64,000 bases of DNA from Candidatus Woesearchaeota archaeon (GTDB taxonomy: Archaea; Nanobdellota; Nanobdellia; Woesearchaeales; DSVV01): assembly GCA_016214075.1 (NCBI GenBank), contig JACRPI010000020.1:55917-119916 (forward strand), read 5' to 3'. A program made the position numbers and the translations under genes. Position 1 is the stretch's first letter. Each line of letters begins with the position of its first letter. The notes under the pieces are model-generated. The model was not told the DNA's origin. It ran no database searches and was given only the letters and a program-made list of their open reading frames with translations. Of this stretch, positions 9,693-60,662 are shown in pieces.

Positions 9693-9798
9693 GCCTAGGT
9701 AGTGTAGTCTGGTCTATCATGAAGCCCTGTCGAACTGCCTTTTGCAAAAAAGGTGGTAAAGAAAGGCTTCGACCCGGGTTCAAATCCCGGCCTGGGCG
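9693..9798 (+). tRNA. tRNA-Asp(GUC) with 31-nt intron at 37/38 (9733-9763); no encoded CCA
   Basis: Acceptor GCCTAGG/CCTGGGC; anticodon stem AAGCC/GGCTT; CT-GTC-G; T arm CCGGG-TTCAAAT-CCCGG. Confidence 0.93.
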
Positions 9799-9884: not shown

Positions 9885-9959
9885 GGGCCGTTAGCTCAGC
9901 CTGGCTAGAGCACAACACTTTTAATGTTGGGGTCACGGGTTCGAATCCCGCACGGCCCG
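9885..9959 (+). tRNA. tRNA-Lys(UUU); no encoded CCA
   Basis: Acceptor GGGCCGT/ACGGCCC; CAACA-CTTTTAA-TGTTG anticodon arm; GGGTTCGAATCCC T arm. Confidence 0.96.
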
Positions 9960-30535: not shown

Positions 30536-31309
30536 TTAAAGTTTGCGCTCTTTTACTCCATTATAAGATGTTTCTTTATCTTCTAATCTTCTAAACGGTT
30601 TCTCTTTGCACGCTTCTTCATGAACATGCGCAATAATACTTGCAGTTCGTGGTAAGATGAAAAATCCTCGCCCAATCTTCCAGTCAAAACCCATTTCGAG
30701 TATGACTGCAGCGATCGCGCCATCAATGTTGATGCAGAGTTTTTTTCCTTTCTTCTTTTCTAAATAGGATTCTATTTTTTGCACTGTTTCAATATATTTT
30801 CCTGCATAGCCTGCTTTCTTTGCTTGCTGAAAAATCGCCTGCGCTCGTGGATCATGGTCTGTGTAGATTTTGTGGCCAAAACCAGGAATGCGCTGCTTTC
30901 TTTCCATCATGTTGTCCACAATATGTTTCGCAATCTCTTCTGCTGATTTGTTTTTCATTTCTTCATCGATATGCGAATGAAGGAGTTGCGCGCATTGTTC
31001 CATCGCGCCGCCATGATGCTGACCAATCGCTAATATTCCTGCCGCAACCGCGCTGTTCATTTGTCCTGAACCAGAATATGCGATTCGCGCAGCGGTGATT
31101 GATGGTGGAGTTATTCCATGTTCCATCGCGCTGATAAGAATGGTGTTGAACAATGCTTCTTCTTTTTTGTTTGGAAGTTCTCCTTTCCAAAGTAACCAAA
31201 TTGCTTGGGTGAAATTGCATTTGGTCATCAGGTCTTCGACATTATAACCTCTGATGAGTGTCTTTTCTTCTGTCGCAACACTGATAGATGTTTTCCAGCC
31301 TTGTTCCAT
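30536..31309 (-). CDS. ccl: Citryl-CoA lyase (citrate-synthase homology domain)
   Basis: IRGYNV, EHGITPPS, HHGGAME, IPGFGH, DPRA, NIDGAIA. Confidence 0.88.
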   Translation of the reverse strand: MEQGWKTSISVATEEKTLIRGYNVEDLMTKCNFTQAIWLLWKGELPNKKEEALFNTILISAMEHGITPPSITAARIAYSGSGQMNSAVAAGILAIGQHHGGAMEQCAQLLHSHIDEEMKNKSAEEIAKHIVDNMMERKQRIPGFGHKIYTDHDPRAQAIFQQAKKAGYAGKYIETVQKIESYLEKKKGKKLCINIDGAIAAVILEMGFDWKIGRGFFILPRTASIIAHVHEEACKEKPFRRLEDKETSYNGVKERKL

Positions 31310-31370
31310 ATCTCTTGCTGAGATACGGTTGTTTATATTGCTTGTGGAAGAAGAATGTGTTGTTGCTATT

Positions 31371-31529
31371 TTATAACTCTCCTTTTCTGTCTGCTATGAT
31401 TGTATCATAAACAGACCATGCTTGACAACATCCGCATCCATTCTCATAATTTGGACAATGTTTTCCGTATAAGTTTTCTATTTTATGTTTCAGCCAATTT
31501 TCATAAACTCTTTCTTTCCTTTTTGTCAT
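31371..31529 (-). CDS. 52-aa Cys-rich microprotein (not in ORF track)
   Basis: Manual translation MTKRKERVYENWLKHKIENLYGKHCPNYENGCGCCQAWSVYDTIIADRKGEL. Confidence 0.55.
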   Translation of the reverse strand: MTKRKERVYENWLKHKIENLYGKHCPNYENGCGCCQAWSVYDTIIADRKGEL

Positions 31530-31605
31530 CACAAATGTTGTTATTCACTTCTATTTAACTCTTTCCTCAACAAAATATTTATACTCTTTTTTTATCCTTC
31601 TTTTT

Positions 31606-31983
31606 ATGGTCATAAAAAATGTCGTTACTGTTTTTATTTTTCATAATAATAAACTTCTTTTACTCAAAAGAAAAAAACAACCATATTTAGATTGCTGGGC
31701 TCCTCCTGGCGGGAAATTGGATGGTGATGAATCTCCTGAACAGGCTGCAGTTCGAGAGATAGTAGAAGAAGTGAATCTTCATGTTACTCTTGAAAAATAT
31801 CTTGGTTCGTATCTCAACCCAGAAACAGAAGTCCTCGATCATGTATTTACTACAACTTCTTTCTCAGGCACTGTGCATAACAACGAACCAGAGAAACACG
31901 AAACTGTTGCTTGGTTTTCCTTAGATGAAATCCCTCAAAACACGAGTTGGATAGTGAAAAGATGGCTGGAATTGAAGAAATGA
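31606..31983 (+). CDS. NUDIX hydrolase
   Basis: Nudix box GGKLDGDESPEQAAVREIVEEVNL. Confidence 0.93.
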   Translation: MVIKNVVTVFIFHNNKLLLLKRKKQPYLDCWAPPGGKLDGDESPEQAAVREIVEEVNLHVTLEKYLGSYLNPETEVLDHVFTTTSFSGTVHNNEPEKHETVAWFSLDEIPQNTSWIVKRWLELKK

Positions 31984-31989
31984 ACTAAA

Positions 31990-32880
31990 TTATTCTAACA
32001 ACTCCTTTACTCTCTCCACAATCTCATGATGCACTTCAACGACATGAACACCTGCAGAATTTAATGCAGCGACTTTCGCCGCTCGTGTTCCTTTGCCTTC
32101 TTCAATAATTGCTCCTGCATGACCTAATGTTGTTGAAGGGAGCATTTCTGCGAATTTTCCAGAAATAAACGCAATCACTGGTTTTGGATAGTTTGTTTTT
32201 TTGATATACTCCGCAGCGTCTTCTTCTGCTGTTCCTCCTATCTCTCCAAACAGAACAATTACTTTTGTTTCTTCATCGCTTTTGAACATTTCTAACAGTT
32301 CTACGTAATTTGTGCCCATGATAACATCTGCGCCACAACCCACTACTGTAGATTGTCCAATCCCTGCTTTTGTCAGAATAGATGCTGTTTCTGAAGACAT
32401 ACCGCCGCTCTTTGAAATAATTCCTACATTTCCTTTACTGAATTGTTCACTTGTTAATCCGCCAATCATCCCCACTTTTGCTTTTCCTGGACTAATGATG
32501 CCAATAGATGTTGGACCAATAATTGTTGCATGGTGTTTTTTTGCTAGCGCAACACAGTGTGCAGTATCTTTGATAGGAATGTTTTCTGTAATGACATTAA
32601 TGAGCTTGATGTTTGCTTCGAGCGCTTCAATCACTGCGTCTTTCGCTCCTTTTGCTGGCACGATAATTATGGATATGGTGATGTCTGGATGCGTTTGCAT
32701 TGCTTCTTTGCAACTATTGTAGACAGGAACTCCCTCTACTGTTTCTCCTCCTTTACCTGGACGGACTCCCGCAACGACATTTGTTTGGTAAGATTGCATA
32801 AACTGCGTTGCTCGAATTCCTTCTTTTCCAGTTATTCCTTGCACAAGGACTTTTGTTTTCTCGTTGATTAAAATGCTCAT
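31990..32880 (-). CDS. Citryl-CoA synthetase alpha / SucD-like CoA-binding subunit
   Basis: VLVQGITG, IGPTSIG, SKSGGM, GEIGG, phospho-His LGHAGA. Confidence 0.9.
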   Translation of the reverse strand: MSILINEKTKVLVQGITGKEGIRATQFMQSYQTNVVAGVRPGKGGETVEGVPVYNSCKEAMQTHPDITISIIIVPAKGAKDAVIEALEANIKLINVITENIPIKDTAHCVALAKKHHATIIGPTSIGIISPGKAKVGMIGGLTSEQFSKGNVGIISKSGGMSSETASILTKAGIGQSTVVGCGADVIMGTNYVELLEMFKSDEETKVIVLFGEIGGTAEEDAAEYIKKTNYPKPVIAFISGKFAEMLPSTTLGHAGAIIEEGKGTRAAKVAALNSAGVHVVEVHHEIVERVKELLE

Positions 32881-32933
32881 TTTTGTTTGCTCTCGTTGTT
32901 TTATTTTGTATTTTACTTCTTTTAATAATAAAT

Positions 32934-32995
32934 ACCCCATTCCCACTTCATGTGGGAATGGGTCCCCCTGATGTTTTTGCCTTTGTTGGTGCGTG
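32934..32995 (+). repeat. Dispersed hairpin element, copy 4
   Basis: ACCCCATTCCCAC-TTCAT-GTGGGAATGGGTCCCCCTGAT ... GGTGCGTG. Confidence 0.9.
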
Positions 32996-33037
32996 TTTTT
33001 TCTTTACTTTGCATTTTTTTACTTCTTTATTTTTTTT

Positions 33038-34231
33038 CTAACAAGCACAGCGTTTTCTCTCCTGTATTTTTTCAGCCATTTTTTTTGCCGCAACAGTAAT
33101 AGGTGTTTCATCGCCATACCATTCCATATCTAAGCAGAGTTCTTTTGCTGTTTGTTCGACTACTATTTTCGCTTCCTTATCTCCTGGTCCTGCGCGTCTG
33201 AAGATAATGGGATATTCAGGTTTTAATTCTTTGATGACTTTTATGATCGCAGCGATTGTTTCATGAATCTGCGTAAAATTCGCTTTTGCTCCGACGACAA
33301 ATAATCCCTTGAGATTTGGTTTGTGCATCACAATTCTTGTCAACGCTTCCACTTTTTCTGGACTTGGATTTCCACTGTATTCTGTATAATTCGCAGGCTT
33401 TTGCTTGTAGCTGATCAGCGCGTCCACTGCTGTAATGCTTGCGCCGCCACCTGACGCGAGTATGCCAACATCTCCTTCTAATTCGATGTATGTTTTTCCC
33501 GCAATTCCTCTGTGATCGAGTTCGTTGACCTTGTTTGCCGCGATTTCTGCCTCTGTTTTTTCTCTGCCTATTCCTACTCTTTGTGGGAATTGAATATTTT
33601 GTCTGAACAACGCATCGTCGTCAAGAATTATTTTCGCGTCAGCCGCGATGAGATCGTTGCTTTCTGTTTCAATAAGTGGATTTATCTCGAGTAATTTCAT
33701 ATCTTTGTCTATAAATAATTTGTAGAGCTTTTCCAATAGTGGAATCATCTGCAGATTTGCTATTCCTGCTTTGTGAAGGATGTGCTTTGCTTCATGTTCT
33801 GTGATGCTGTTGAGGATGTTTACTTGTTCCACAATCACTTTGCTTGGATGGATATTTTTTGTTTCTTCAACATCTACTCCTCCTTGACTGCTTGCGATGA
33901 TCACCGGATTTCTTGTCTTTGTGTCGTAGGTTATTGCGAGGTAGAACTCGTTTTTTATCTTGCACTTTGTTTCGATGAGGAGTTTTTTTACTGTTTCAAA
34001 GCTGTGGTGTTCGTGGAGGAGTTGTTTTGTTATTGTTTGAATCTCTTCTTTTGTTTTTGCGGATTTGATTAACCCCGCTTTTCCTCGCTTACCTTCTAAT
34101 GTCTGCGCTTTGATGATTACTTCTTCTGTTGGTTCTTGGATTTCTCTTGTGTTTTCTATTATGTATCCTTCTGGAACAGCTATTCCTGCTTCTTTGAGGA
34201 GTTGTTTTCCTTCGAATTCGTAGAGTTTCAT
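33038..34231 (-). CDS. Citryl-CoA synthetase beta / ATP-citrate lyase beta-like ATP-grasp subunit
   Basis: KLYEFEGK, GKRGKAGLI, LEINP; SGGGAS, ANYTEYSGNP and ANFT resemble ACL citrate-binding motifs rather than SucC NGAG/NFLD. Confidence 0.85.
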   Translation of the reverse strand: MKLYEFEGKQLLKEAGIAVPEGYIIENTREIQEPTEEVIIKAQTLEGKRGKAGLIKSAKTKEEIQTITKQLLHEHHSFETVKKLLIETKCKIKNEFYLAITYDTKTRNPVIIASSQGGVDVEETKNIHPSKVIVEQVNILNSITEHEAKHILHKAGIANLQMIPLLEKLYKLFIDKDMKLLEINPLIETESNDLIAADAKIILDDDALFRQNIQFPQRVGIGREKTEAEIAANKVNELDHRGIAGKTYIELEGDVGILASGGGASITAVDALISYKQKPANYTEYSGNPSPEKVEALTRIVMHKPNLKGLFVVGAKANFTQIHETIAAIIKVIKELKPEYPIIFRRAGPGDKEAKIVVEQTAKELCLDMEWYGDETPITVAAKKMAEKIQERKRCAC

Positions 34232-34293: not shown

Positions 34294-34338
34294 TGTACCC
34301 CTACAAATTATTTTTTTTGATAGAATTGTAGGGGTACA
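34294..34338. terminator. 13-bp inverted repeat downstream of PEP-mobile gene
   Basis: TGTACCCCTACAA (34294-34306) / TTGTAGGGGTACA (34326-34338). Confidence 0.45.
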
Positions 34339-34344
34339 TTCTAT

Positions 34345-35397
34345 TTATGGTATTTTGGATAAAATTTTTTTCACAATCCCTTTCTCTGCATCCACTTCAA
34401 CAAGATCGCCGTCTTTGAGCATTCGTGTTGCATTCTTAGTTCCAATCACACAAGGGATTTTTAACTCTCTTGAGAGAATTGCTGCGTGACACACAAGTCC
34501 GCCTTCATCTGTGATAATCGCTGTTGCTTTCTCGATAAACGGCATGTAGATTGGACTTGTACTTACTGAAACTAAGATTTCTCCTTTGTTAAATATGACT
34601 CCTTTAATTGTTCGATCATTCACTATTCTGACTCTTCCCTTTACTATTCCAGGATATGCGCAGCGACCTTTGATCTCTTGTTCTTTTGTAATGGGTTCTA
34701 ACATTTCAATGATTTTTTCTGCATCAGTTCTGAAAGAAATATATTCTTTCTCATCAATGACTGCATAAACATAATTTCCTTCTTGATTCTTTCTCTCGTT
34801 ATACTTCTGCCACTCTTTTGCGAGAATTTCTTTATATGTCAGATAATTTACAGCATTTTCATTTACTCCTGCTTTTTTTGCTTCTTTTTGCGCAAGAGGG
34901 ATAATTATCTCTTCAATTATTCTTGGATAATATGATATTGCTCGTAGCTGTTCTGTCTTTTTGATCACTTCTTTGTCTTTGATTTCATTGAGAAATTCTC
35001 CTGCTCTGTAGGGAAGCGCTGTTGCATGCAGACTCAAAATGATTAAAAATTGCACTGCCTCTTGTAATGTTAGCGTTTCTTTTTTCGCAAGAATCCTTTC
35101 TGCTTGTTTATTGAGTTGTTCTGCTTTCTCAAGAAGTGTTCGTATCTTTTTTGTGTTTGTATAGATTTCTTTTGCGCATTTGTTATATGCTTCTACTTGT
35201 TCTTTTGGCCGGTAGCATCGTGCAACGTCTTTCTTTTCTTCTAGAAATAACACGTCTGGAAATCGTGCACCAAGAACTCGTTTCCATTCTTCTGATTCAT
35301 ACCATGTATGCCATAATGATGCACCAAAAAGATTAAATGGGCGCGTTAAGTAGTACTGCCAGTTTCTTGCTTTTAGAATGATGTTTATTTTGTTCAT
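34345..35397 (-). CDS. PEP-utiliser mobile (phospho-His) domain protein 1
   Basis: C-terminal GRCAYPG..AIITDEGGLVCHAAILSRELKIPCVIGT..LKDGDLVEVDA. Confidence 0.9.
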   Translation of the reverse strand: MNKINIILKARNWQYYLTRPFNLFGASLWHTWYESEEWKRVLGARFPDVLFLEEKKDVARCYRPKEQVEAYNKCAKEIYTNTKKIRTLLEKAEQLNKQAERILAKKETLTLQEAVQFLIILSLHATALPYRAGEFLNEIKDKEVIKKTEQLRAISYYPRIIEEIIIPLAQKEAKKAGVNENAVNYLTYKEILAKEWQKYNERKNQEGNYVYAVIDEKEYISFRTDAEKIIEMLEPITKEQEIKGRCAYPGIVKGRVRIVNDRTIKGVIFNKGEILVSVSTSPIYMPFIEKATAIITDEGGLVCHAAILSRELKIPCVIGTKNATRMLKDGDLVEVDAEKGIVKKILSKIP

Positions 35398-36473
35398 TGT
35401 ATCTTCCTTACAATTCCTTTCTCTGCGTCGACTTCGACAAGATCACCATCTTTCAGAATCTTTGTTGCGATTTTTGTGCCGATAATGCATGGTTTCTTGA
35501 TTTCTCTCGCAATGATCGCAGCGTGACAGATCAAGCCCCCTTCATTTGTCACAATTGCCTTGCATTTCTCCAAAACAGGCAGTAATGTTGGATTTGTGTT
35601 TATGGAAACAATAATATCTCCTTCTTGAAATTTATCCATATCATCCACTGCATTAATGATGCACACTCTTCCCTGGACAATTCCAGCACATGCACTTCTT
35701 CCCTGCACTTCTGTTTGTTCTTTCACACTGTTCTCTACAATATTGAGCTTTTCTTTTATCTTTTCATCGTAAAGGAAGATTGCTTTTTCTCTTTCATCAA
35801 AATACCACCAGCAGCCATTTTTTCGCTTGGAAATCTCTTGAACATCTTTCTGTTTTTCAAATATTTCTCTGACTTCTTCTGTTGTGCAGTATGCGTAATC
35901 TTTGGAATCAGCTCTTTTTGTTATTTCTGCTGCTTGCTTCCATATTTCTTCAATCACTGGTTGAAGTGCTCGTCTTGTTTTTTTTCGGAATGCTTGAAAC
36001 TCTTTTCTTATTTTTTCATATCTTCTTTGCTCTTCTTCAGTCATTCCTTGTTCCATCGCATATAATACATACCATGGAATGCAGGTGAGATAGAGAAAAA
36101 TATGCTCCATTTCATCAATAATCTCTCTGTACTGCTTTTTGAACTTTATATTCTTCTCTGAAAATCTCTTCATTAACGTTTCTTCTCTCTTTTGATACTG
36201 CTTCCCTTTCTTTATCCATTCTTGCAGTTTTGGATTCTTCTCTTTGATTATTTTAAGGAAATGTGTCACTACTGCTTTCATCTCCGCATCTGAGCGATAT
36301 GTTGTCGCAAATCCATCTTTATACCAACACAACTCTTTTCTAAATCTGAAGCCAGTCTCTTGTTCCATTAATGTACTATATGCTTTATAGAAAATAGAAA
36401 CATAGAAAATATTGCTCTTTCTCTCTAAATGCAATATCCAGTCTATTTTTTTGAGCGTTTTGATGGAAGTCAT
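35394..36473 (-). CDS. PEP-utiliser mobile domain protein 2
   Basis: AIVTNEGGLICHAAIIAREIKKPCIIGT. Confidence 0.9.
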   Translation of the reverse strand: MTSIKTLKKIDWILHLERKSNIFYVSIFYKAYSTLMEQETGFRFRKELCWYKDGFATTYRSDAEMKAVVTHFLKIIKEKNPKLQEWIKKGKQYQKREETLMKRFSEKNIKFKKQYREIIDEMEHIFLYLTCIPWYVLYAMEQGMTEEEQRRYEKIRKEFQAFRKKTRRALQPVIEEIWKQAAEITKRADSKDYAYCTTEEVREIFEKQKDVQEISKRKNGCWWYFDEREKAIFLYDEKIKEKLNIVENSVKEQTEVQGRSACAGIVQGRVCIINAVDDMDKFQEGDIIVSINTNPTLLPVLEKCKAIVTNEGGLICHAAIIAREIKKPCIIGTKIATKILKDGDLVEVDAEKGIVRKIQ

Positions 36474-36483
36474 CGTAGTTTTC

Positions 36484-36978
36484 TCACATATTCTCTATCT
36501 TCTTCATTACTTCTTTATACATATCAATAGAGAGATAAAAACCAGAAGAGATCATTCCATCAATATATTGTTTTGCTTCTTTTTTTGTTATTTTTTTCTC
36601 TTGCAATAAGAGTAATATTACATATACTGTTCCGTGTCTCTTTACTCTTAATGATTCTGCAACCTCTCGCGCATATATTTCATCTATAATCGCAATGGCG
36701 TTTTTCTCTCTTGCAAGAAAAATAACTTCTACATCCGCTTGGCTCAGGGGTATTTTTCTCTCTCTCTTTATTCTTGTTTTTTCTACAAGAAACTTCTTTT
36801 CTCTAATGAGGTTGTTCACATATGTCGCTTCAGTTTCTCTTCTTTCCAATCCTTTGAGAACAACTTCATCATACACACGTTGCGGTATGAATTTCCTTCC
36901 AGAAAGAAGTGAAACTTTCTCTAAAGCACGAACTTTTCCCAAATAGATAAGTGGTGATGCATCAAAGACATAATCCAT
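36484..36978 (-). CDS. PIN-domain toxin (DUF3368-like)
   Basis: YVFDASPLIYL, AIIDE..AR, HGTVYVIL. Confidence 0.88.
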   Translation of the reverse strand: MDYVFDASPLIYLGKVRALEKVSLLSGRKFIPQRVYDEVVLKGLERRETEATYVNNLIREKKFLVEKTRIKRERKIPLSQADVEVIFLAREKNAIAIIDEIYAREVAESLRVKRHGTVYVILLLLQEKKITKKEAKQYIDGMISSGFYLSIDMYKEVMKKIENM

Positions 36979-37274
36979 CAGAATGCCTCCAGATCCTCCT
37001 GGACAGCTCTATCTTTCACCCACTGAATTTTTGCTTCTTTTATTTTCGCAGTCAATGACCAGATATCTATTCCCGCAATCTCTGCCGCTTTACTTACTGT
37101 TGTTTTTCCCTCAGATAAAAGCTTGAGCGCGTGTTCGAGTCTCCACTCTTCCAACGATTTGAAGAGAAGTTTTCGTAATGCCGCTGACTTTTCCAAATGC
37201 TCTTCTTTCATATATACTTCTAATTCTGCTTCCAGGACTTCTGGAATTCTTGCGGAGATATTTACTTCAGTCAT
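36978..37274 (-). CDS. UPF0175-like antitoxin
   Basis: ISARIP, KSAALRKLL, EGKTTVSKAAEIAG; coupled to the PIN gene. Confidence 0.85.
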   Translation of the reverse strand: MTEVNISARIPEVLEAELEVYMKEEHLEKSAALRKLLFKSLEEWRLEHALKLLSEGKTTVSKAAEIAGIDIWSLTAKIKEAKIQWVKDRAVQEDLEAF

Positions 37275-37306
37275 AATGTATACATAGTATACCTTGTATA
37301 TAAAGT

Positions 37307-38671
37307 TTACGGAAGTTTTCTGACTGTTCCTTTCTCTGCGTCTACTTCGATAAGATCACCGTCTTTCAGAATCTTTGTTGCGATTTTTGTGCCGACAATA
37401 CAAGGCTTCTTCATCTCCCGCGAAACAATAGCTGCATGACTGATAATTCCACCTTCATTTGTCACAAACGCTGCTGCTTTTTGCATCGCAGGAAGGTATG
37501 TTGGATGTGTGGTGTTTGCAATGAGAATATCGCCGATCTCTACATTTTTGACATCATGGTACGATCGCACAATTTTGACTTTGCCTGTTATTTTTCCTTT
37601 AAAAGCAACAAGACCTTTTATAACTTCATTTTTCCCTTTATTCTCTATTTCTTCGATGCGTTTTTCATATTTTTCAGGAATATTTTTGTCTATAACTGTT
37701 ATTTTCAGATCTTCTCCCAAACACGTAATAATGCATGGCTTTTCTTTTCTTGCAGCAATTATTTTACTTGGATTATTTTCTTTTTTTAATGCACTTTCTA
37801 TCTCATCTAATGTCAGATATCCTACTTCTTCGTATTTTATTTTCCATGCTTTTGCTATTTCTTCAAACAAAAAAGTCCATGAATAGCAATGCATTCTTCT
37901 CAGATCATCTCTCCAATCTTTGAAGAAAATAATGTATGGCGCAAGTTCTAAGAACTTCTTTTCTTCAGGGGTTGGATTAAGGAGAGCAAACAGTTGTTTT
38001 TTGGTTAGTGCTTTTGCATCGTTGTGACTTTGAGCGGTGATATTTCTTACCCACGCTTCATCAAGGGGTCTATACCACACCACAGACCAGCTTCTGAGGA
38101 ATTGATATTCTTCTGCTATCTTTTTCGGAGAAATACCCTTGCTTATCTTTTCTTGTATCTCATGAAGCGCAGTATTTTTCCACGGCTTGTATGCTGCGGT
38201 GAGAATTTCATCTTGTTGGTGTTCTACTTTATTTCTTTTGATAATCCCATTCAGGAGCTGCTCAAAATCTGCCTGCCATGCTTCAATTGCAAGCCAGGAG
38301 AAAATACTATACACATAGTTGATTTGCATGAACTGTTCTCTGAACTCACGAAACGCTTCCTGCGTCTTTGTTCTCTTCTCTTTTTCCCACTTCTCTGTTG
38401 TCTTCTGTATCTTTTTCAGAAGGACTTGTCCTTCGTTATAGTATTTTTGAATTTGTTCTGGAGTATTGAAATATTTTTTGTACAGAAATCTTCCTACTTC
38501 TTTCTGATCTACCCCAATATAGTGGGTGAAATTCTTTTCTTGAAAATGCGTGAAAAACAGTTCTTCTTTTTTTTGCGCAAATTGCCAGACCGCATCGTAA
38601 AAAACAATGTCTAAGCCAGAGATCGTTGTGATGTCCACGCCTTCTCTCGCTAAAAGTTTTTGCCAGGTCAT
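37307..38671 (-). CDS. PEP-utiliser mobile domain protein 3
   Basis: AFVTNEGGIISHAAIVSREMKKPCIVGT. Confidence 0.9.
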   Translation of the reverse strand: MTWQKLLAREGVDITTISGLDIVFYDAVWQFAQKKEELFFTHFQEKNFTHYIGVDQKEVGRFLYKKYFNTPEQIQKYYNEGQVLLKKIQKTTEKWEKEKRTKTQEAFREFREQFMQINYVYSIFSWLAIEAWQADFEQLLNGIIKRNKVEHQQDEILTAAYKPWKNTALHEIQEKISKGISPKKIAEEYQFLRSWSVVWYRPLDEAWVRNITAQSHNDAKALTKKQLFALLNPTPEEKKFLELAPYIIFFKDWRDDLRRMHCYSWTFLFEEIAKAWKIKYEEVGYLTLDEIESALKKENNPSKIIAARKEKPCIITCLGEDLKITVIDKNIPEKYEKRIEEIENKGKNEVIKGLVAFKGKITGKVKIVRSYHDVKNVEIGDILIANTTHPTYLPAMQKAAAFVTNEGGIISHAAIVSREMKKPCIVGTKIATKILKDGDLIEVDAEKGTVRKLP

Positions 38672-38747: not shown

Positions 38748-40157
38748 ATGCAGCTCTCTCCAGATCAACAAAAGGCAATTGACAGCCAAAAAGCGCAATG
38801 TCCCTTCTGCAAGATTGTCAAAGGAGAAATTCCTAGCAAAAAAGTCTACGAAGATGATCAACTCCTCGCAATTCTTGACATCAACCCTGCCGCGAAAGGG
38901 CATCTTCTCATTATGCCTAAAGAACATTATCCCATTATGCCATTAATTCCTCCTCCTCTTTTTGAACATCTTTTTACGCGAACAAAACAACTTTCCGCTG
39001 CGATGAAAGAAGGCATGCTGCTTTTTGGCAACACGCTTTTCATCGCAAACGGCTACGCCGCTGGACAACAGAGCAGCCACTTTATGCTGCATCTTATTCC
39101 TAGGGAAGCTCCTGATGATTTAGAGTTTTTTCAACCTAAAAAAGGAATTATCGATAAAGCGAAATTGCAGGAAACATTCAATCTATTGAAGCACAATCTT
39201 CCGATCATGCTTCGCCAGCGCTTTTCGCTTTATCCCATTCCTGGGCAGGAACAACCGCGTGTTGAAGCACAGCAAACACAAGTACGTTCCTCAGTTTCGT
39301 CTGTTGAACAAGAATACTCATCTCCTCCACAACCATCAGCACTGCAACAACCTTCGTCATCAGTCCGCTCACCTGCAGGTTACACAAAAGAAACAGTCAT
39401 CAAATTGGTGGAATCTAATGATCAACTCAAACAATTTGTTATTCAATATCCTGAAGAATTCAAGAAACAAGTGCAGCAAAGCGGTCGCTTGAAATCTGTG
39501 TTCGCGAACATTGATGTTGATGACATTATCGCGCATTTCGCTCCTCCGAAAAAAGCAGAGTCTCAGTATTCTATGGATGAGCTTGTTGATTTGGTCAATG
39601 ATAATCCAAAACTCAAAGAGCTTCTTTTGAAACAGACCTTCTTGTTCACAGAAAAAATTCAGCAGGTTTCGGAATTGAAGGAACTCTTTGAAGGCGTTGA
39701 TGTTGAAGCATTAGAGCGCGCAGTGATTGCCCGCGATGTTCATCAGGAACAGGATGTGCAAGAAATTCTTGCTCCGTTTAAAGAGAAGACTGCTTCTGCG
39801 ACACAGTTTGCAAGTAGTCTTGTTGATACAGAGACGCTCAAAAACCTTGCGCCGCATCTGGAGATTCCTGCCGCAGAGAATCCTGCGGAGATTCAGGATG
39901 AAGATGAATCTATTACAAACCTTCATGCTTTTGGGGAAGAGGAATCATCTTCTGAAGCTGGCGAAGAGTACTCTGAAGAACAACAAGAAGAAGCTAAAGA
40001 ACAAGAGCAGCAAAAAAAATATGTAAAAAAACCGTTTTCAAAGAAACAGAAAGAAGGAAACGAAGCATCACCGGAAGAACCAGAAGAAAAATCAAAAAAA
40101 GGAGCAGATCTTGATCTGATTTCCCGCCTTCATCGGGAAATGTTACAACGACAATGA
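38748..40157 (+). CDS. HIT-like domain protein with long acidic C-terminal extension (degenerate triad)
   Basis: CPFCKIVKGEIP..DINPAAKGHLLIMPKEH; triad reads HFMLH. Confidence 0.85.
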   Translation: MQLSPDQQKAIDSQKAQCPFCKIVKGEIPSKKVYEDDQLLAILDINPAAKGHLLIMPKEHYPIMPLIPPPLFEHLFTRTKQLSAAMKEGMLLFGNTLFIANGYAAGQQSSHFMLHLIPREAPDDLEFFQPKKGIIDKAKLQETFNLLKHNLPIMLRQRFSLYPIPGQEQPRVEAQQTQVRSSVSSVEQEYSSPPQPSALQQPSSSVRSPAGYTKETVIKLVESNDQLKQFVIQYPEEFKKQVQQSGRLKSVFANIDVDDIIAHFAPPKKAESQYSMDELVDLVNDNPKLKELLLKQTFLFTEKIQQVSELKELFEGVDVEALERAVIARDVHQEQDVQEILAPFKEKTASATQFASSLVDTETLKNLAPHLEIPAAENPAEIQDEDESITNLHAFGEEESSSEAGEEYSEEQQEEAKEQEQQKKYVKKPFSKKQKEGNEASPEEPEEKSKKGADLDLISRLHREMLQRQ

Positions 40158-40726
40158 CGTGCCCTCTTTGCTCCATCAGCCAGAAACATGTTGCGAGCCA
40201 GATTGTGTATGAAGATGCTGTTTGTCTCGCGTATCTTCCTTCTGACGCTGCCGCTGTTGGTCATATTCATGTCATCCCCAAAGATCACATAGAAACGTTG
40301 GAACAGCTTCCTGATTCTCTCGCGACGCAACTCTTCTATGTCGCAAGCTACGCCGCAAGCGCGATCTATGAAGGACTCGCATCACACGGAACAAACATTA
40401 TTTGTAACAATGGCGCGGGCGCAAAAGGACATCTTTCTCTTCACATTATTCCCCGTTTTGAAAACGATGGCATTTCTTTGACGTGGCAGCCAAAACAACT
40501 TCCTCCTCCAGATTTTGAGGACGCGATGAAGAAGATAAAAGACAAAGCGGATTTTATTGATTACAAAGGCGCGAAGAAAGAAGCTCCTGCTCTGCAACAA
40601 GCAATACAGCCAGAAGCAGTTGCTGTTCCTCAAGACGTTGTTTCTGTAAAAGACGCTCCTAAAGAGATTATCACTACATCTGATGAAGAAAATTATATGG
40701 TCAAGCATTTGTATAGGATACCGTAG
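40154..40726 (+). CDS. HIT-like protein (degenerate triad)
   Basis: CPLC..VGHIHVIPKDH; triad reads HLSLH. Confidence 0.85.
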   Translation: MTCPLCSISQKHVASQIVYEDAVCLAYLPSDAAAVGHIHVIPKDHIETLEQLPDSLATQLFYVASYAASAIYEGLASHGTNIICNNGAGAKGHLSLHIIPRFENDGISLTWQPKQLPPPDFEDAMKKIKDKADFIDYKGAKKEAPALQQAIQPEAVAVPQDVVSVKDAPKEIITTSDEENYMVKHLYRIP

Positions 40727-40736
40727 AGCTGATATT

Positions 40737-42080
40737 ATGGGCAAATTTCCAGAATTAATGAAACTGAAAGAGGAATTCAAAAATAAGACTTTACTTGAGT
40801 ATGTTCATGAGCATTTATTGAGAAAAAGAGAATTATTACCTCTTGATGTTGAAGCATATAAAGTATTTTGCAAGAACTTTAAACAAGATAATATTCGCAG
40901 GATTTCAACTGGTTCTCATATGGCTTTTTTACAATGGGAAGAATCATTCGGTCTTGGAGAAAACATTCTTGTTAATCTCCCCCATCTTCTTAACGAAAAT
41001 GAAAATATTATTTCTTCTCCATGCAGTCGTATTACTTTTAAAAGCCAAACAAGGCCTGGTTCAGTTGATCTTTCACATATGGGTGAGAAGAGCATGAAGC
41101 TCTCTCGTTATACATTAAGAGGAAGAAGCAAAATAACTCTCAATAAAGCAGAGAAGATTACTGAACAGGAAATGGAAAACTTCTTACAATCTTTTTACAA
41201 GTTCCAGAAAAGCCCGTCTATGTTTAAATTCATCAATCAGGAGAAGTTATCAGCATTTATCAAATACGCAAAGCAAATGGTCAAAAAAGGAGAAACATTC
41301 AATGAACAAAGTAGTTGGTTTAGTAGTCAACTCTGGCCTCATCTTTTTAATGATTTTGAATCCTTTCCTCTTATCATTAAGCCCCTTGAAGATTTACAAG
41401 TTAAAAGAGAGAATCTGTTAGTAAATAAAAAATTACGAACCCTTCTTGAGAAGCATTTTAAAGACCATTATGGGGTATTATCTTCAACGTATTTTTATTA
41501 TGGTTCATGCAAATGTGGAATTGAATTTCCTTTAGAAAAAAGAGAAGATGCAGAATTGGTTTATCTTGAGGGAAACTGCCTTGATAAAGATTGCCTGTAT
41601 TTTGGAACTAAAAAATACAGCGTCGAAGGTAATAATATAATTAAAGAAGTGGAGAAGAAAAATCTAAATGAGACTCTTTTCATTACCTTCTATAATATTT
41701 GGGCATTAGCTGGCATTGATGTATTGGGAGGATTTAATCAAGCTGAATATCTGAAAGAATTTAGAGATAAGCTTTGTTTGATTTTTCAAGAGATTGGAGA
41801 AAATAAAAAAAGCGAAATTTTGAAGAAAAGAGCAACTAACTTATTAGACTTGGGCGTTTTTGCAGCATTCAATGCAGATGGAATACCTAAATCAGGCTCT
41901 CAAGTATTTTTAGAGGGAGGCTTAGATAAACAGTATGTTGAACAATTCTCTAAACTCAATTTTTCCAAGACAATTGATGTATCTTTACAGACTATTAACA
42001 GCTTATTTGGAGAAAAGCCAAATCATTCTTTAACAGTAAAAATGCTAAAAGATAACAAAATGGAGTTTATGATAAAATGA
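40737..42080 (+). CDS. Hypothetical protein coupled to the epimerase
   Basis: ~447-aa AT-rich ORF; ATGA overlap with next gene. Confidence 0.75.
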   Translation: MGKFPELMKLKEEFKNKTLLEYVHEHLLRKRELLPLDVEAYKVFCKNFKQDNIRRISTGSHMAFLQWEESFGLGENILVNLPHLLNENENIISSPCSRITFKSQTRPGSVDLSHMGEKSMKLSRYTLRGRSKITLNKAEKITEQEMENFLQSFYKFQKSPSMFKFINQEKLSAFIKYAKQMVKKGETFNEQSSWFSSQLWPHLFNDFESFPLIIKPLEDLQVKRENLLVNKKLRTLLEKHFKDHYGVLSSTYFYYGSCKCGIEFPLEKREDAELVYLEGNCLDKDCLYFGTKKYSVEGNNIIKEVEKKNLNETLFITFYNIWALAGIDVLGGFNQAEYLKEFRDKLCLIFQEIGENKKSEILKKRATNLLDLGVFAAFNADGIPKSGSQVFLEGGLDKQYVEQFSKLNFSKTIDVSLQTINSLFGEKPNHSLTVKMLKDNKMEFMIK

Positions 42081-43195
42081 TAGAAGCATACAAATTAAAC
42101 TTCAAATTTGAAGAGCCTGTCAGGATTGCTTGGAAAACATTTCACCATAACGCAGGCGATCTTCTGATTGTCAAGAGAGATAATTTAATAGGTTATGGCG
42201 AAGCTGTTCCTGACCCCTTCATTACAAAAGACACCCAAAAATCAGTTTTTCGTTACTTAAAAGAAAATGCTTTCTTACTTCCAAAAGAAATCAATCTTAA
42301 AACAATTCAAGAAATTCATAAGAAGTTGCCAGTAGGTTCACCAACTGCTCGCGCGGCTATTGACTTTGCTCTTCATGATTTATGGGGAAAGCAAGAAAAA
42401 TCAAAAATTTCAAACTTATATTCTAAGAATGTAAACATGCCTTTAAATTGTATAACCCTCTTTGGCAAAAATCCAAAAGAAACACAACTAGACGTAGAAA
42501 AAATTCTTAAAGCTTATCCTCATCTTAAAGTTATCAAAATAAAACTTATGGGAAAAAATGACATTAAAAGATGCGAGATGATAAAAGAAAAAATTGATGA
42601 AATGAAAAGAAAAATCTCTTATGTTCTTGATTGCAACCAAGCGTATAAAACAAGCGCAGAAGCTATAAAAATATTAAATCAACTTGGAAATATTCTCCAA
42701 GACGTCATACTTATTGAAGAACCAGTGCCAGCAAGACAATGGGATTTGATGAAAGAAGTTACAGATAATGTTAATATCCCTATATTTGTTGATGAATCAG
42801 CCGTAGATCTTGAAGATGTTAAAACAATCATAAAAAAACAATGCGCAAATGGAATAAACATCAAACTCCAAAAAACAGGAGGAATATGGCCAGCTAAAAT
42901 TATCGCAGAAGAATGTGAAAAACATGGCTTAAAAGTGATGGTAGGATGCATGTTTGAATCATCCATAGGAATAGCTGCCGGAATCCATTTTGCGCAATCA
43001 ACAAAAAATGTTATGTTAACTGATCTTGATTACGATTTACAGATGCCAGATATTTACAAATATAGGCCAACATTTGAGAATGGAGTTAGAAAATCTACAG
43101 ACAAAGCAGGCTTAGGAGTTGAACTTGATTTTACAAAAATTGAAAATCTGAAAAAATCTTCTCAAGTGATATTTGAAAAAGTACTCTTTCAATAA
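42077..43195 (+). CDS. Dipeptide epimerase (L-Ala-D/L-Glu epimerase-like, enolase superfamily MLE subgroup)
   Basis: KIK, DCNQ, EEP, DES, NIKLQKTGG, GCM and terminal DLD motifs. Confidence 0.9.
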   Translation: MIEAYKLNFKFEEPVRIAWKTFHHNAGDLLIVKRDNLIGYGEAVPDPFITKDTQKSVFRYLKENAFLLPKEINLKTIQEIHKKLPVGSPTARAAIDFALHDLWGKQEKSKISNLYSKNVNMPLNCITLFGKNPKETQLDVEKILKAYPHLKVIKIKLMGKNDIKRCEMIKEKIDEMKRKISYVLDCNQAYKTSAEAIKILNQLGNILQDVILIEEPVPARQWDLMKEVTDNVNIPIFVDESAVDLEDVKTIIKKQCANGINIKLQKTGGIWPAKIIAEECEKHGLKVMVGCMFESSIGIAAGIHFAQSTKNVMLTDLDYDLQMPDIYKYRPTFENGVRKSTDKAGLGVELDFTKIENLKKSSQVIFEKVLFQ

Positions 43196-43202
43196 ATTCT
43201 TC

Positions 43203-55844: not shown

Positions 55845-56315
55845 TTACATCAACGCTTTGATATAATCAAAATATTCCTTCATATTCTTGTAAAACTCTG
55901 TTACTTTATCAATGTGCACATGATATTCTCCTTCATCAAGTTGCGCGATCAGCGTGACATGTCTTCTGTATTCGTTAATGCTGTTGTACTCCGCTTTGCT
56001 TAATGTCTTTATGAGAATATAAAATTCCAAGAAATTCATTAATGTCTTGTCGTCGGGATAGAGGCGCTTGAGCTCCTTGCATTTCATCATCGGATGCGGC
56101 GTCAAGCTTTTTACTTTTCCTGTGCTTTTCGCGTGCTCGCCGAGCGCGTTCATCATGCATTCGCATGTCGCGATCATTCTCTCGACAACATTCTTGAGCA
56201 CGTCTGTTGTTCGTGTGTATTTTAGACTGACATAGATCAAGTGATCGACACGTTTCAATTCTTCGTATGCTTCTTCCAGTTGATCTCTCATGTTTTCACA
56301 CACTCTCTGATACAC
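55845..56315 (-). CDS. Hypothetical protein (HEPN-like helical appearance)
   Basis: ELKRVDHLIYVSLKYTRT, EYRRHVT; clean ORF. Confidence 0.7.
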   Translation of the reverse strand: MYQRVCENMRDQLEEAYEELKRVDHLIYVSLKYTRTTDVLKNVVERMIATCECMMNALGEHAKSTGKVKSLTPHPMMKCKELKRLYPDDKTLMNFLEFYILIKTLSKAEYNSINEYRRHVTLIAQLDEGEYHVHIDKVTEFYKNMKEYFDYIKALM

Positions 56316-60341: not shown

Positions 60342-60662
60342 GTAGGGTGTCACGGTGTTATCGGAAACAACTCTGAAACGGGTTGTTCCTGAGGAAAGTC
60401 CGTCCATCACAAAAAGGCGACCTACGGAAGTAGGATCTTGAAAAAGATGGCAACCACACAGAAACGCACTCCTTTGCGATAATGGAATGACGCACGCGAC
60501 GTCTTTGGTAACAGAGATAAGTAAGCTGCTGACGTCTCGCAGAGTGAAGATGAAACGGTGAGCCCTTGCTGATGCAAGTTCGTTTTGAACGCTGAGTAGA
60601 ATACACTGACCACTTGTTCATGTTTCGTGAAAGTGCACAGAAGACGGCTTATGGCACCCTAC
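60342..60662 (+). ncRNA. rnpB: RNase P RNA
   Basis: P1 GTAGGGTGTC/GGCACCCTAC; GAGGAAAGTCC; ACAGAAAC; GAAACGG; GATGCAAG; ACAGAAGACGGCTTA; P2 CGGTGT/ACACTG; P3 hairpin. Confidence 0.93.

Follow-up and report, generated by a model that had tools for sequence, protein, structure and literature searches.

Three neighboring genes of a Candidatus Woesearchaeota archaeon, here called A, B and C (Table 1), probably encode the substrate-binding and phosphohistidine-carrier parts of split, ATP-dependent small-molecule dikinases of the rifampin phosphotransferase (RPH) family, arranged in a recombining tandem array. The RPH-family small-molecule dikinases are reportedly a class in the sense of Stogios et al. 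2016. The genes were analyzed within a window of 64,000 nt, the whole stretch from position 55,917 to position 119,916 of contig JACRPI010000020.1 (assembly GCA_016214075.1), and positions given below count from the first nucleotide of this window. The window derives from a groundwater metagenome, with 98% of the locus contained in run X1, has a G+C content of ~39% and carries an archaeal RNase P RNA at 60342-60662.

The three open reading frames (ORFs) are intact and lie on one strand, and A and B overlap by 4 nt (ATGA), an arrangement that predicts translational coupling of gene A to gene B. The sole Pfam match in each protein was the phosphoenolpyruvate (PEP)-utilizers domain PF00391, C-terminal in every case (E 4e-24, 1e-22 and 5e-25 for A, B and C, respectively), and the His motifs read DEGGLVCH in A, NEGGLICH in B and NEGGIISH in C. 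The regulatory Thr found two residues before the His in PEP synthase (GGRTSH) is replaced by V in A and by I in B and C. Pfam detected neither PPDK_N (PF01326) nor PEP-utilizers_C, the PEP/pyruvate TIM-barrel (PF02896), in any of the three proteins, and the structural models of B and C were likewise without an ATP-grasp. The first-pass annotation of the window, made from the letters alone, had described three genes ending in a PEP-utiliser domain with an intact His, the PEP synthase Thr replaced by V or I, and neither an ATP-grasp nor a PEP barrel, and all of this was borne out. It had also stated that the N-termini share only a W-x4-R pattern. The shared pattern is W-x5-R, and the likeness goes further than that: A aligns with B along its entire length at 36% identity (E 7e-46), B and C have the same topology, and one Arg is common to all three proteins (R159 in A, R163 in B and R254 in C).

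AlphaFold2 models were made for B and C from alignments of 81-83 sequences, with a predicted local distance difference test score (pLDDT) of 95.7 for B and 91.3 for C. The two models share a topology in which an N-terminal beta-alpha-beta-beta unit is followed by a helical bundle. The best Foldseek match in the PDB was RPH-Lm for both, over the rifampin-binding and swivel domains, with E 1.4e-11 for B and with E 1.5e-13 (5fbu) and a whole-chain TMq of 0.56 for C, and the leading matches for both models were 5fbu, 5fbt and 5hv1. In a profile search against PDB sequences, positions 150-362 of the B family aligned with residues 652-866 of RPH, an alignment that reaches beyond the swivel domain and sets the conserved Arg of the B family on RPH Arg666. 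Arg666 and Glu667 of RPH are essential in the second phosphotransfer (PMC4844700). In the B family the catalytic His was present in 83/83 sequences and Arg or Lys occupied the Arg position in 83/83; in the C family the His was likewise found in 81/81 sequences, and the motif K251-D-W-R254-D-D-x-R258-R259 was fully invariant (81/81). Invariant Trp and Arg/Asp residues abound in the substrate domain of C, but no ligand could be derived from them. The swivel domain was nearest in sequence to archaeal PEP synthase (8a8e, E 1e-41 to 2e-35).

The predicted fold, the sequence match to RPH and the conserved Arg together indicate that A, B and C each join an RPH-type substrate domain to a C-terminal swivel and lack the ATP-grasp. 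The N-terminal regions could have turned out to be full nucleotide-binding domains; by Foldseek, those of the B and C models resemble instead the rifampin-binding domain of RPH. The C family has more than 3000 homologues in DPANN archaea and in bacteria of the candidate phyla radiation (CPR), and the B family has thousands of homologues of equal length. Homologues carry the labels Nanoarchaeota, Woesearchaeota or Micrarchaeota; such organism labels are unreliable for many records of metagenome-assembled genomes (MAGs).

A precedent for this architecture is provided by HpeHI, CreHI and PpsAB (phenylphosphate synthase), two-component RPH homologues in which substrate and swivel domains reside on the H or A subunit and the ATP-grasp on the I or B subunit; the latter (HpeI, CreI or PpsB) is needed for ATP-dependent phosphorylation of the phenolic substrate (PMC12167813). 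Judged by architecture, and taking HpeH as described, A, B and C are like HpeH, CreH and PpsA in having an RPH-type substrate domain, a C-terminal swivel and no ATP-grasp in the chain, and in not keeping the regulatory Thr of PEP synthase (PMC12167813). On the other hand, HpeH, CreH and PpsA have ~600 aa and belong to aromatic-degrading Actinobacteria and Proteobacteria, whereas the proteins considered here have 350-454 aa and belong to DPANN archaea and CPR bacteria. In the known systems one H and one I gene are adjacent in a catabolic operon, while here up to 13 H-type genes stand in tandem, with no aromatic-catabolism context. A, B and C also resemble RPH-Lm (5FBS/5FBT/5FBU, 5HV1) and the RPH-like 'PRK06241' single-chain dikinases in the order of substrate domain and swivel, and RPH-Lm in the conservation of the catalytic His and of the Arg666 position. 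Unlike RPH-Lm, they have no ATP-grasp in cis, so they are not single-chain RPH enzymes; identity amounts to 14-22%, and the substrate domain measures 250-345 aa compared to ~430 aa in RPH. There is no reason to expect rifampin as a substrate. To PEP synthase and pyruvate phosphate dikinase (PPDK) they are linked by the sequence similarity of the swivel, and the partner ATP-grasp of their relatives is the Pfam domain PPDK_N; they differ from these enzymes in the lack of both TIM barrel and ATP-grasp and in the replacement of Thr by V or I.

By analogy with RPH and HpeHI, we propose that a separately encoded PPDK_N ATP-grasp protein of ~315 aa would bind ATP and (pyro)phosphorylate the swivel His (H304 in A, H317 in B and H412 in C). 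The charged swivel would then swing back onto its own N-terminal domain and pass the phosphate to a bound hydroxyl-bearing substrate, a step that the conserved Arg may aid or stabilise, and the products would be the substrate-phosphate, AMP and Pi. Each paralogue carries a different substrate domain and would presumably act on a different substrate. Gene conversion may keep the swivel-coding 3' ends alike, plausibly as all paralogues dock on one shared ATP-grasp, and the same 3' ends could supply the homology where whole cassettes are gained, lost or swapped. The use of one ATP-grasp for many modules would explain the constant swivel, the diverging substrate domains and a 3' conversion that is tolerated or even favoured.

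Evidence for the ATP-grasp partner comes from related loci. A scan with the C-family alignment, using one genome per species, gave 78 loci in DPANN and CPR MAGs, and the array statistics given here rest on the 46 of those loci that are at least 15 kb long. A PPDK_N ORF was found within 10 kb in 21 of the 46, being located inside the array in locus L028 (Nanoarchaeia) and beside it in locus L071 (Woesearchaeota). C-family proteins are fused behind PPDK_N in CPR bacteria (P0024, 792 aa; P0033, 788 aa), and one such fusion was present in a Micrarchaeota MAG (L013). Standalone PPDK_N-only proteins (~315 aa), which match the N-terminus of P0024 at 67-75% identity, occupied the best 120 of the 7998 candidates within the E 1e-10 cut-off. 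The co-occurrence with standalone PPDK_N genes that the first-pass annotation had put forward as a check was thus found in close to half of the loci.

Several results weigh against the proposed system. No PPDK_N gene was detected in the 64-kb window by tblastn and phmmer with queries from CPR (P0024, P0033) and from archaea (L028, L071, L013), nor, archaeal queries included, in L001 and L008, the loci of its two nearest relatives, each covering 21 kb; the 2.4 kb beyond one edge of the window were also free of it. Solitary C-type genes with no ATP-grasp within 10 kb occur in several relatives, and standalone PPDK_N genes can also occur alone. The equivalents of RPH Glu667 and Lys670 are kept only in C (D255 and R258), the corresponding residues being K and R in B (R-K..R) and A and Y in A (R-A..Y). 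Finally, a shared docking surface as the force behind concerted evolution is something that we infer. The partner ATP-grasp is therefore only predicted for this organism. Since solitary C-type and solitary PPDK_N genes both exist, its absence from 64 kb is only weak evidence against a partner. The phosphodonor in trans that had been predicted for A, B and C thus has a precedent in HpeHI, CreHI and PpsAB and agrees with the fusions and the linkage in relatives, but the window itself did not yield it.

An alternative is that no ATP-grasp partner exists, phosphate being shuttled between small molecules, or the His being charged by PEP synthase, PPDK or an Enzyme-I-like protein. HpeH alone was able to move phosphate from 4-phosphoacetophenone to acetovanillone (PMC12167813), and the lack of PPDK_N both in the window and near solitary C-type genes would also agree with this view. 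We regard it as unlikely because PPDK_N is fused to these proteins in both CPR and DPANN genomes and linked to many of their loci, and because A, B and C have no PEP-binding barrel.

Some further observations concern candidate partners. Two loci, L030 and L059, lie on one 717-kb contig (CAZUKA010000001.1) as arrays of 7 and 2 paralogues ~300 kb apart, with PPDK_N seen only beside the first (L030); this arrangement fits one ATP-grasp serving dispersed modules. On a CPR contig (L006, 9051-9995) a 314-aa ORF with no Pfam match directly precedes a standalone PPDK_N gene in the same orientation and is a possible further partner. Two other candidates were rejected. The ATP-grasp_2/citrate-binding gene downstream of the array is found with it only in close relatives and in L021; together with a CoA-ligase alpha gene and a citrate-synthase-like gene it makes up a set of the ATP-citrate-lyase (ACL) or citryl-CoA-synthetase type, hence no phosphodonor candidate. 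HIT-family genes were dismissed as conserved partners, being present in only a few lineages.

The 3' ends of B and C share a patch of DNA that is identical at 66 of 69 nt and includes a 34-nt exact run, exactly as first reported, and this is the only direct exact repeat of at least 30 nt in the whole window. Within the patch, B and C use the same codon at 19 of 21 identical residues against 9.5 expected from codon usage, whereas in the upstream swivel region they do so at 16 of 35 against 14.6 expected (Fisher p = 7e-4 for patch versus upstream region). Over the 66-nt segment encoding GTK...EKG, B and C agree at 63/66 positions, while C agrees with its own orthologues in L001 and L008 at only 58-59/66. 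Paralogues that are more alike within a genome than orthologues are a signature of conversion. The C-terminal tail is GIVRKIQ in B of the window and in the C orthologues of L001 and L008, and GTVRKLP in C of the window. Contigs assembled from the source metagenome at k=31 break at both patches. Identity was not uniform along the genes, as a simple duplication would have it, and DNA identity is limited to their last ~70-180 nt. Elsewhere, the five clearest tracts shared by paralogues of an array (at least 88% identity) are without exception situated 0-19 nt from stop codons, with lengths of 218 nt in L021, 193 nt in L012, 160 nt in L057, 81 nt in L022 and 61 nt in L033.

The likeness of the B and C patches might be thought to reflect amino-acid constraint together with codon bias, or selection at the nucleotide level, for example on a signal needed by the gene that follows. 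The peptide specified there, GTK.AT..LKDGD.VEVDAEKG, is indeed nearly invariant across paralogues, and the overlapping start of A follows the B patch after 17 nt. However, the shared codons of the patch are twice the codon-usage expectation and significantly above those of the adjacent, equally conserved part of the swivel, most other paralogue pairs are near expectation, B is closer to C than C is to its own orthologues, no overlapping gene follows the C patch, and the tracts of other arrays also occupy 3' ends. The likeness thus appears to exceed chance or amino-acid constraint, and we give constraint or nucleotide-level selection only about one chance in ten.

Comparison of the window with L001 and L008 pointed to recombination at the same place. 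The three loci share their flanks at 80-92% nucleotide identity and differ in between. The order of genes is HIT / C - toxin-antitoxin (TA) pair - B - A / ACL-beta in the window, HIT / 352 - C - 355 - DUF433 pair - 468 / ACL-beta in L001, and HIT / 353 - C / ACL-beta in L008. A single blastn block (83%) joins 34521-32003 of the window to 14219-16792 of L001, which makes the 3' end of gene A orthologous, by position, to that of the 468-aa gene in L001. Between these two genes identity climbs from the GG..H motif to the stop codon, while their substrate domains are unrelated and of different length. An orthologous 3' end joined to unrelated substrate domains suggests a breakpoint inside the swivel-coding region, as would result from cassette exchange. 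Codon sharing, the excess of paralogue over orthologue identity and the 3' end that A shares with the 468-aa gene together support the view that the His module underwent gene conversion or was exchanged as a cassette, as the first-pass annotation had suggested.

Contigs of other metagenome samples were also aligned with the array. Many of their joints link equivalent swivel positions of A, B and C, and one of them (34418 to 37332) would yield the L008 order C/ACL-beta. None was counted as a recombinant because the contigs are short, each side of a joint is supported by just 20-77 nt at 85% likeness, and some joints come clearly from other paralogues. Downstream of gene A, a perfect inverted repeat with an A/T-rich loop is kept in L001 and had 0 matches in 100 shuffles; the hairpin probably marks the end of the array transcript or a processing site. 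A scan for bacterial promoters and terminators was uninformative for an archaeon.

Array organisation of this kind is widespread in the ultra-small archaea and bacteria of DPANN and CPR. The number of swivel-bearing paralogues per locus had a median of 3.5 and a maximum of 13 (L029); the paralogues are co-oriented in every locus but L032, and there was never more than one C-type gene per locus. At most one ATP-grasp gene was seen per locus, and it was often unlinked. The swivel domains score strongly without exception. The substrate domains, on the other hand, are BLASTP-detectable in only 133 of 639 pairs within a locus, and just 4 of 281 have their best match in their own locus, which marks the paralogues as old, diversified types and not recent duplicates. 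The C substrate domain forms a compact family of constant architecture (89 clusters at 50% identity, among 1.8 billion representatives), whereas for that of gene A hardly any relative was present in the set of 286 substrate domains taken from related loci. C is a conserved core type, and A and B are rarer short-domain types. Neighboring genes gave no functional clue to the C-type substrate domain. In some MAGs the genes are divided, as in L011 (654-2048), where a C-type gene consists of a substrate-domain ORF and a separate swivel ORF, and in L074, where the array genes are broken into many short ORFs. These splits may be frameshifts, sequencing errors or genuine decay.

That A and B are PEP synthase fragments without enzymatic function, duplicates either in decay or devoid of catalysis, is very improbable: annotation offers no more than 'PEP-utilizing enzyme' or 'phosphohistidine swiveling domain-containing protein' and the substrate domain of A has very few relatives, but the ORFs are intact with coupled starts, the predicted fold is of very high confidence, His and Arg (Arg or Lys at the latter position) are invariant across 83 family members and the B family includes thousands of homologues of the same length.

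The genes around and within the array were also considered (Table 1). As the first-pass annotation had noted, a PIN TA pair lies within the array, with PIN/DUF3368 and UPF0175 genes between B and C. The pair (36484-37274) matches PDC-S70, a PADLOC candidate defence system; A, B and C themselves had no PADLOC match, and an anti-phage defence role for them was discarded. The pair is absent at the same position in L001 and L008; L001 has a DUF433 gene and a 64-aa ORF elsewhere in its array, and L008 has none. The TA pair is an insert in the array and not part of the kinase system; this variable locus apparently tends to take up TA modules.

The region directly downstream of the array (30536-34231) holds a set of genes resembling a split ATP-citrate-lyase or citryl-CoA-synthetase/lyase, and between its members lies a Nudix gene of opposite orientation; such metabolic content is unusual for a DPANN genome. 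On the other side, two overlapping HIT-family genes (38748-40726) diverge from the array, and the product of the first (469 aa) carries at its C-terminus a long extension of low complexity that is acidic and rich in Ser and Gln. A few unrelated loci also have HIT genes in the vicinity of swivel genes (L002/L003, L019 and L025). In the window, the two HIT genes are followed by a 2.5-kb segment (40728-43199) that is missing from L001 and L008, has ~32.5% G+C compared to ~39% elsewhere, and holds a 465-aa ORF (40683-42080) with no Pfam or PADLOC match next to a gene of the enolase superfamily, MR_MLE (42077-43195). The segment has the look of a recent insertion that separates the second HIT gene from ABC-transporter genes. 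Away from the array, an Rfam tRNA match over 106 nt (9693-9798), with no ARAGORN call, adjoins tRNA-Lys(UUU) (9885-9959) and is probably an intron-containing archaeal tRNA.

Table 1. Features of the array and its surroundings in the 64,000-nt window
Feature	Position	Strand	Description
Gene A	34345-35397	minus	350 aa; B-class short substrate domain (R159), then swivel domain, catalytic H304
Gene B	35394-36473	minus	359 aa; ~250-aa substrate domain (R163, equivalent of RPH Arg666), then swivel domain, catalytic H317
Gene C	37307-38671	minus	454 aa; residues 1-345 like the RPH rifampin-binding domain, ~346-454 phosphohistidine swivel, catalytic H412
Gene B 3' patch	35414-35482		encodes ..GTKIATKILKDGDLVEVDAEKG..; putative gene-conversion tract shared with C
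Gene C 3' patch	37327-37395		partner of the B patch
Putative recombination breakpoint region	34345-34521	minus	final ~140-180 nt of gene A; orthologous by position to the 3' end of the 468-aa gene in L001
Inverted repeat	34295-34337		perfect 12 bp: GTACCCCTACAA, 19 nt, TTGTAGGGGTAC; between gene A and the ACL-beta-like gene
PIN-like toxin gene	36484-36978	minus	164 aa; DUF3368 C-terminal part; PF11848 E 1e-10, PIN E 3e-5; PADLOC PDC-S70 E 1e-21
UPF0175-family antitoxin-like gene	36978-37274	minus	98 aa; PF03683 E 6e-6, just under gathering score; PADLOC PDC-S70 E 7e-8
Citrate set, ATP-grasp_2 + citrate-binding	33038-34231
Citrate set, CoA-binding/CoA-ligase alpha	31990-32946
Citrate set, citrate synthase	30536-31309		short gene for the C-terminal domain

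Split RPH-family dikinases are a known class; what would be new here is their archaeal members, set in multi-paralogue recombining arrays with an apparently shared and often unlinked ATP-grasp. No description of this split architecture or of such arrays was found in the searchable literature. A survey of the CPR resistome lists rph-like genes (PMC8651080). Thousands of DPANN and CPR proteins are named 'PEP synthase/pyruvate phosphate dikinase' or 'PEP-utilizing enzyme', and a gluconeogenic reading of these names would be wrong because the ATP-binding and PEP-binding domains are both missing. The locus also offers a clean case of what appears to be domain-resolved concerted evolution, with breakpoints in the swivel-coding region.

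More tentatively, and with the odds somewhat against it, these arrays could form a hub-and-spoke dikinase system in DPANN and CPR, in which a single conserved ATP-grasp would load phosphate onto a varying collection of cassette-encoded substrate/His modules, up to twelve or more in number. The 3' end of the swivel would serve both as docking surface and as a handle for recombination between strains, and the episymbionts, poor in genes as they are, would phosphorylate a strain-specific repertoire of small molecules from the host or the environment. Known two-component dikinases pair one ATP-grasp with one substrate subunit, so the pairing of one with many would represent a new principle of organisation and, if true, a natural library of substrate modules on a common charging enzyme. 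Genomes of ~1 Mb spend up to ~20 kb on this one paralogous family (13 genes in L029), and the combination of a conserved phosphocarrier with extremely divergent substrate modules points to an important and unstudied interface of episymbionts with external small molecules. Hub-and-spoke phosphorylation, if it operates, would trap or activate such compounds for salvage, or inactivate them as RPH does rifampin.

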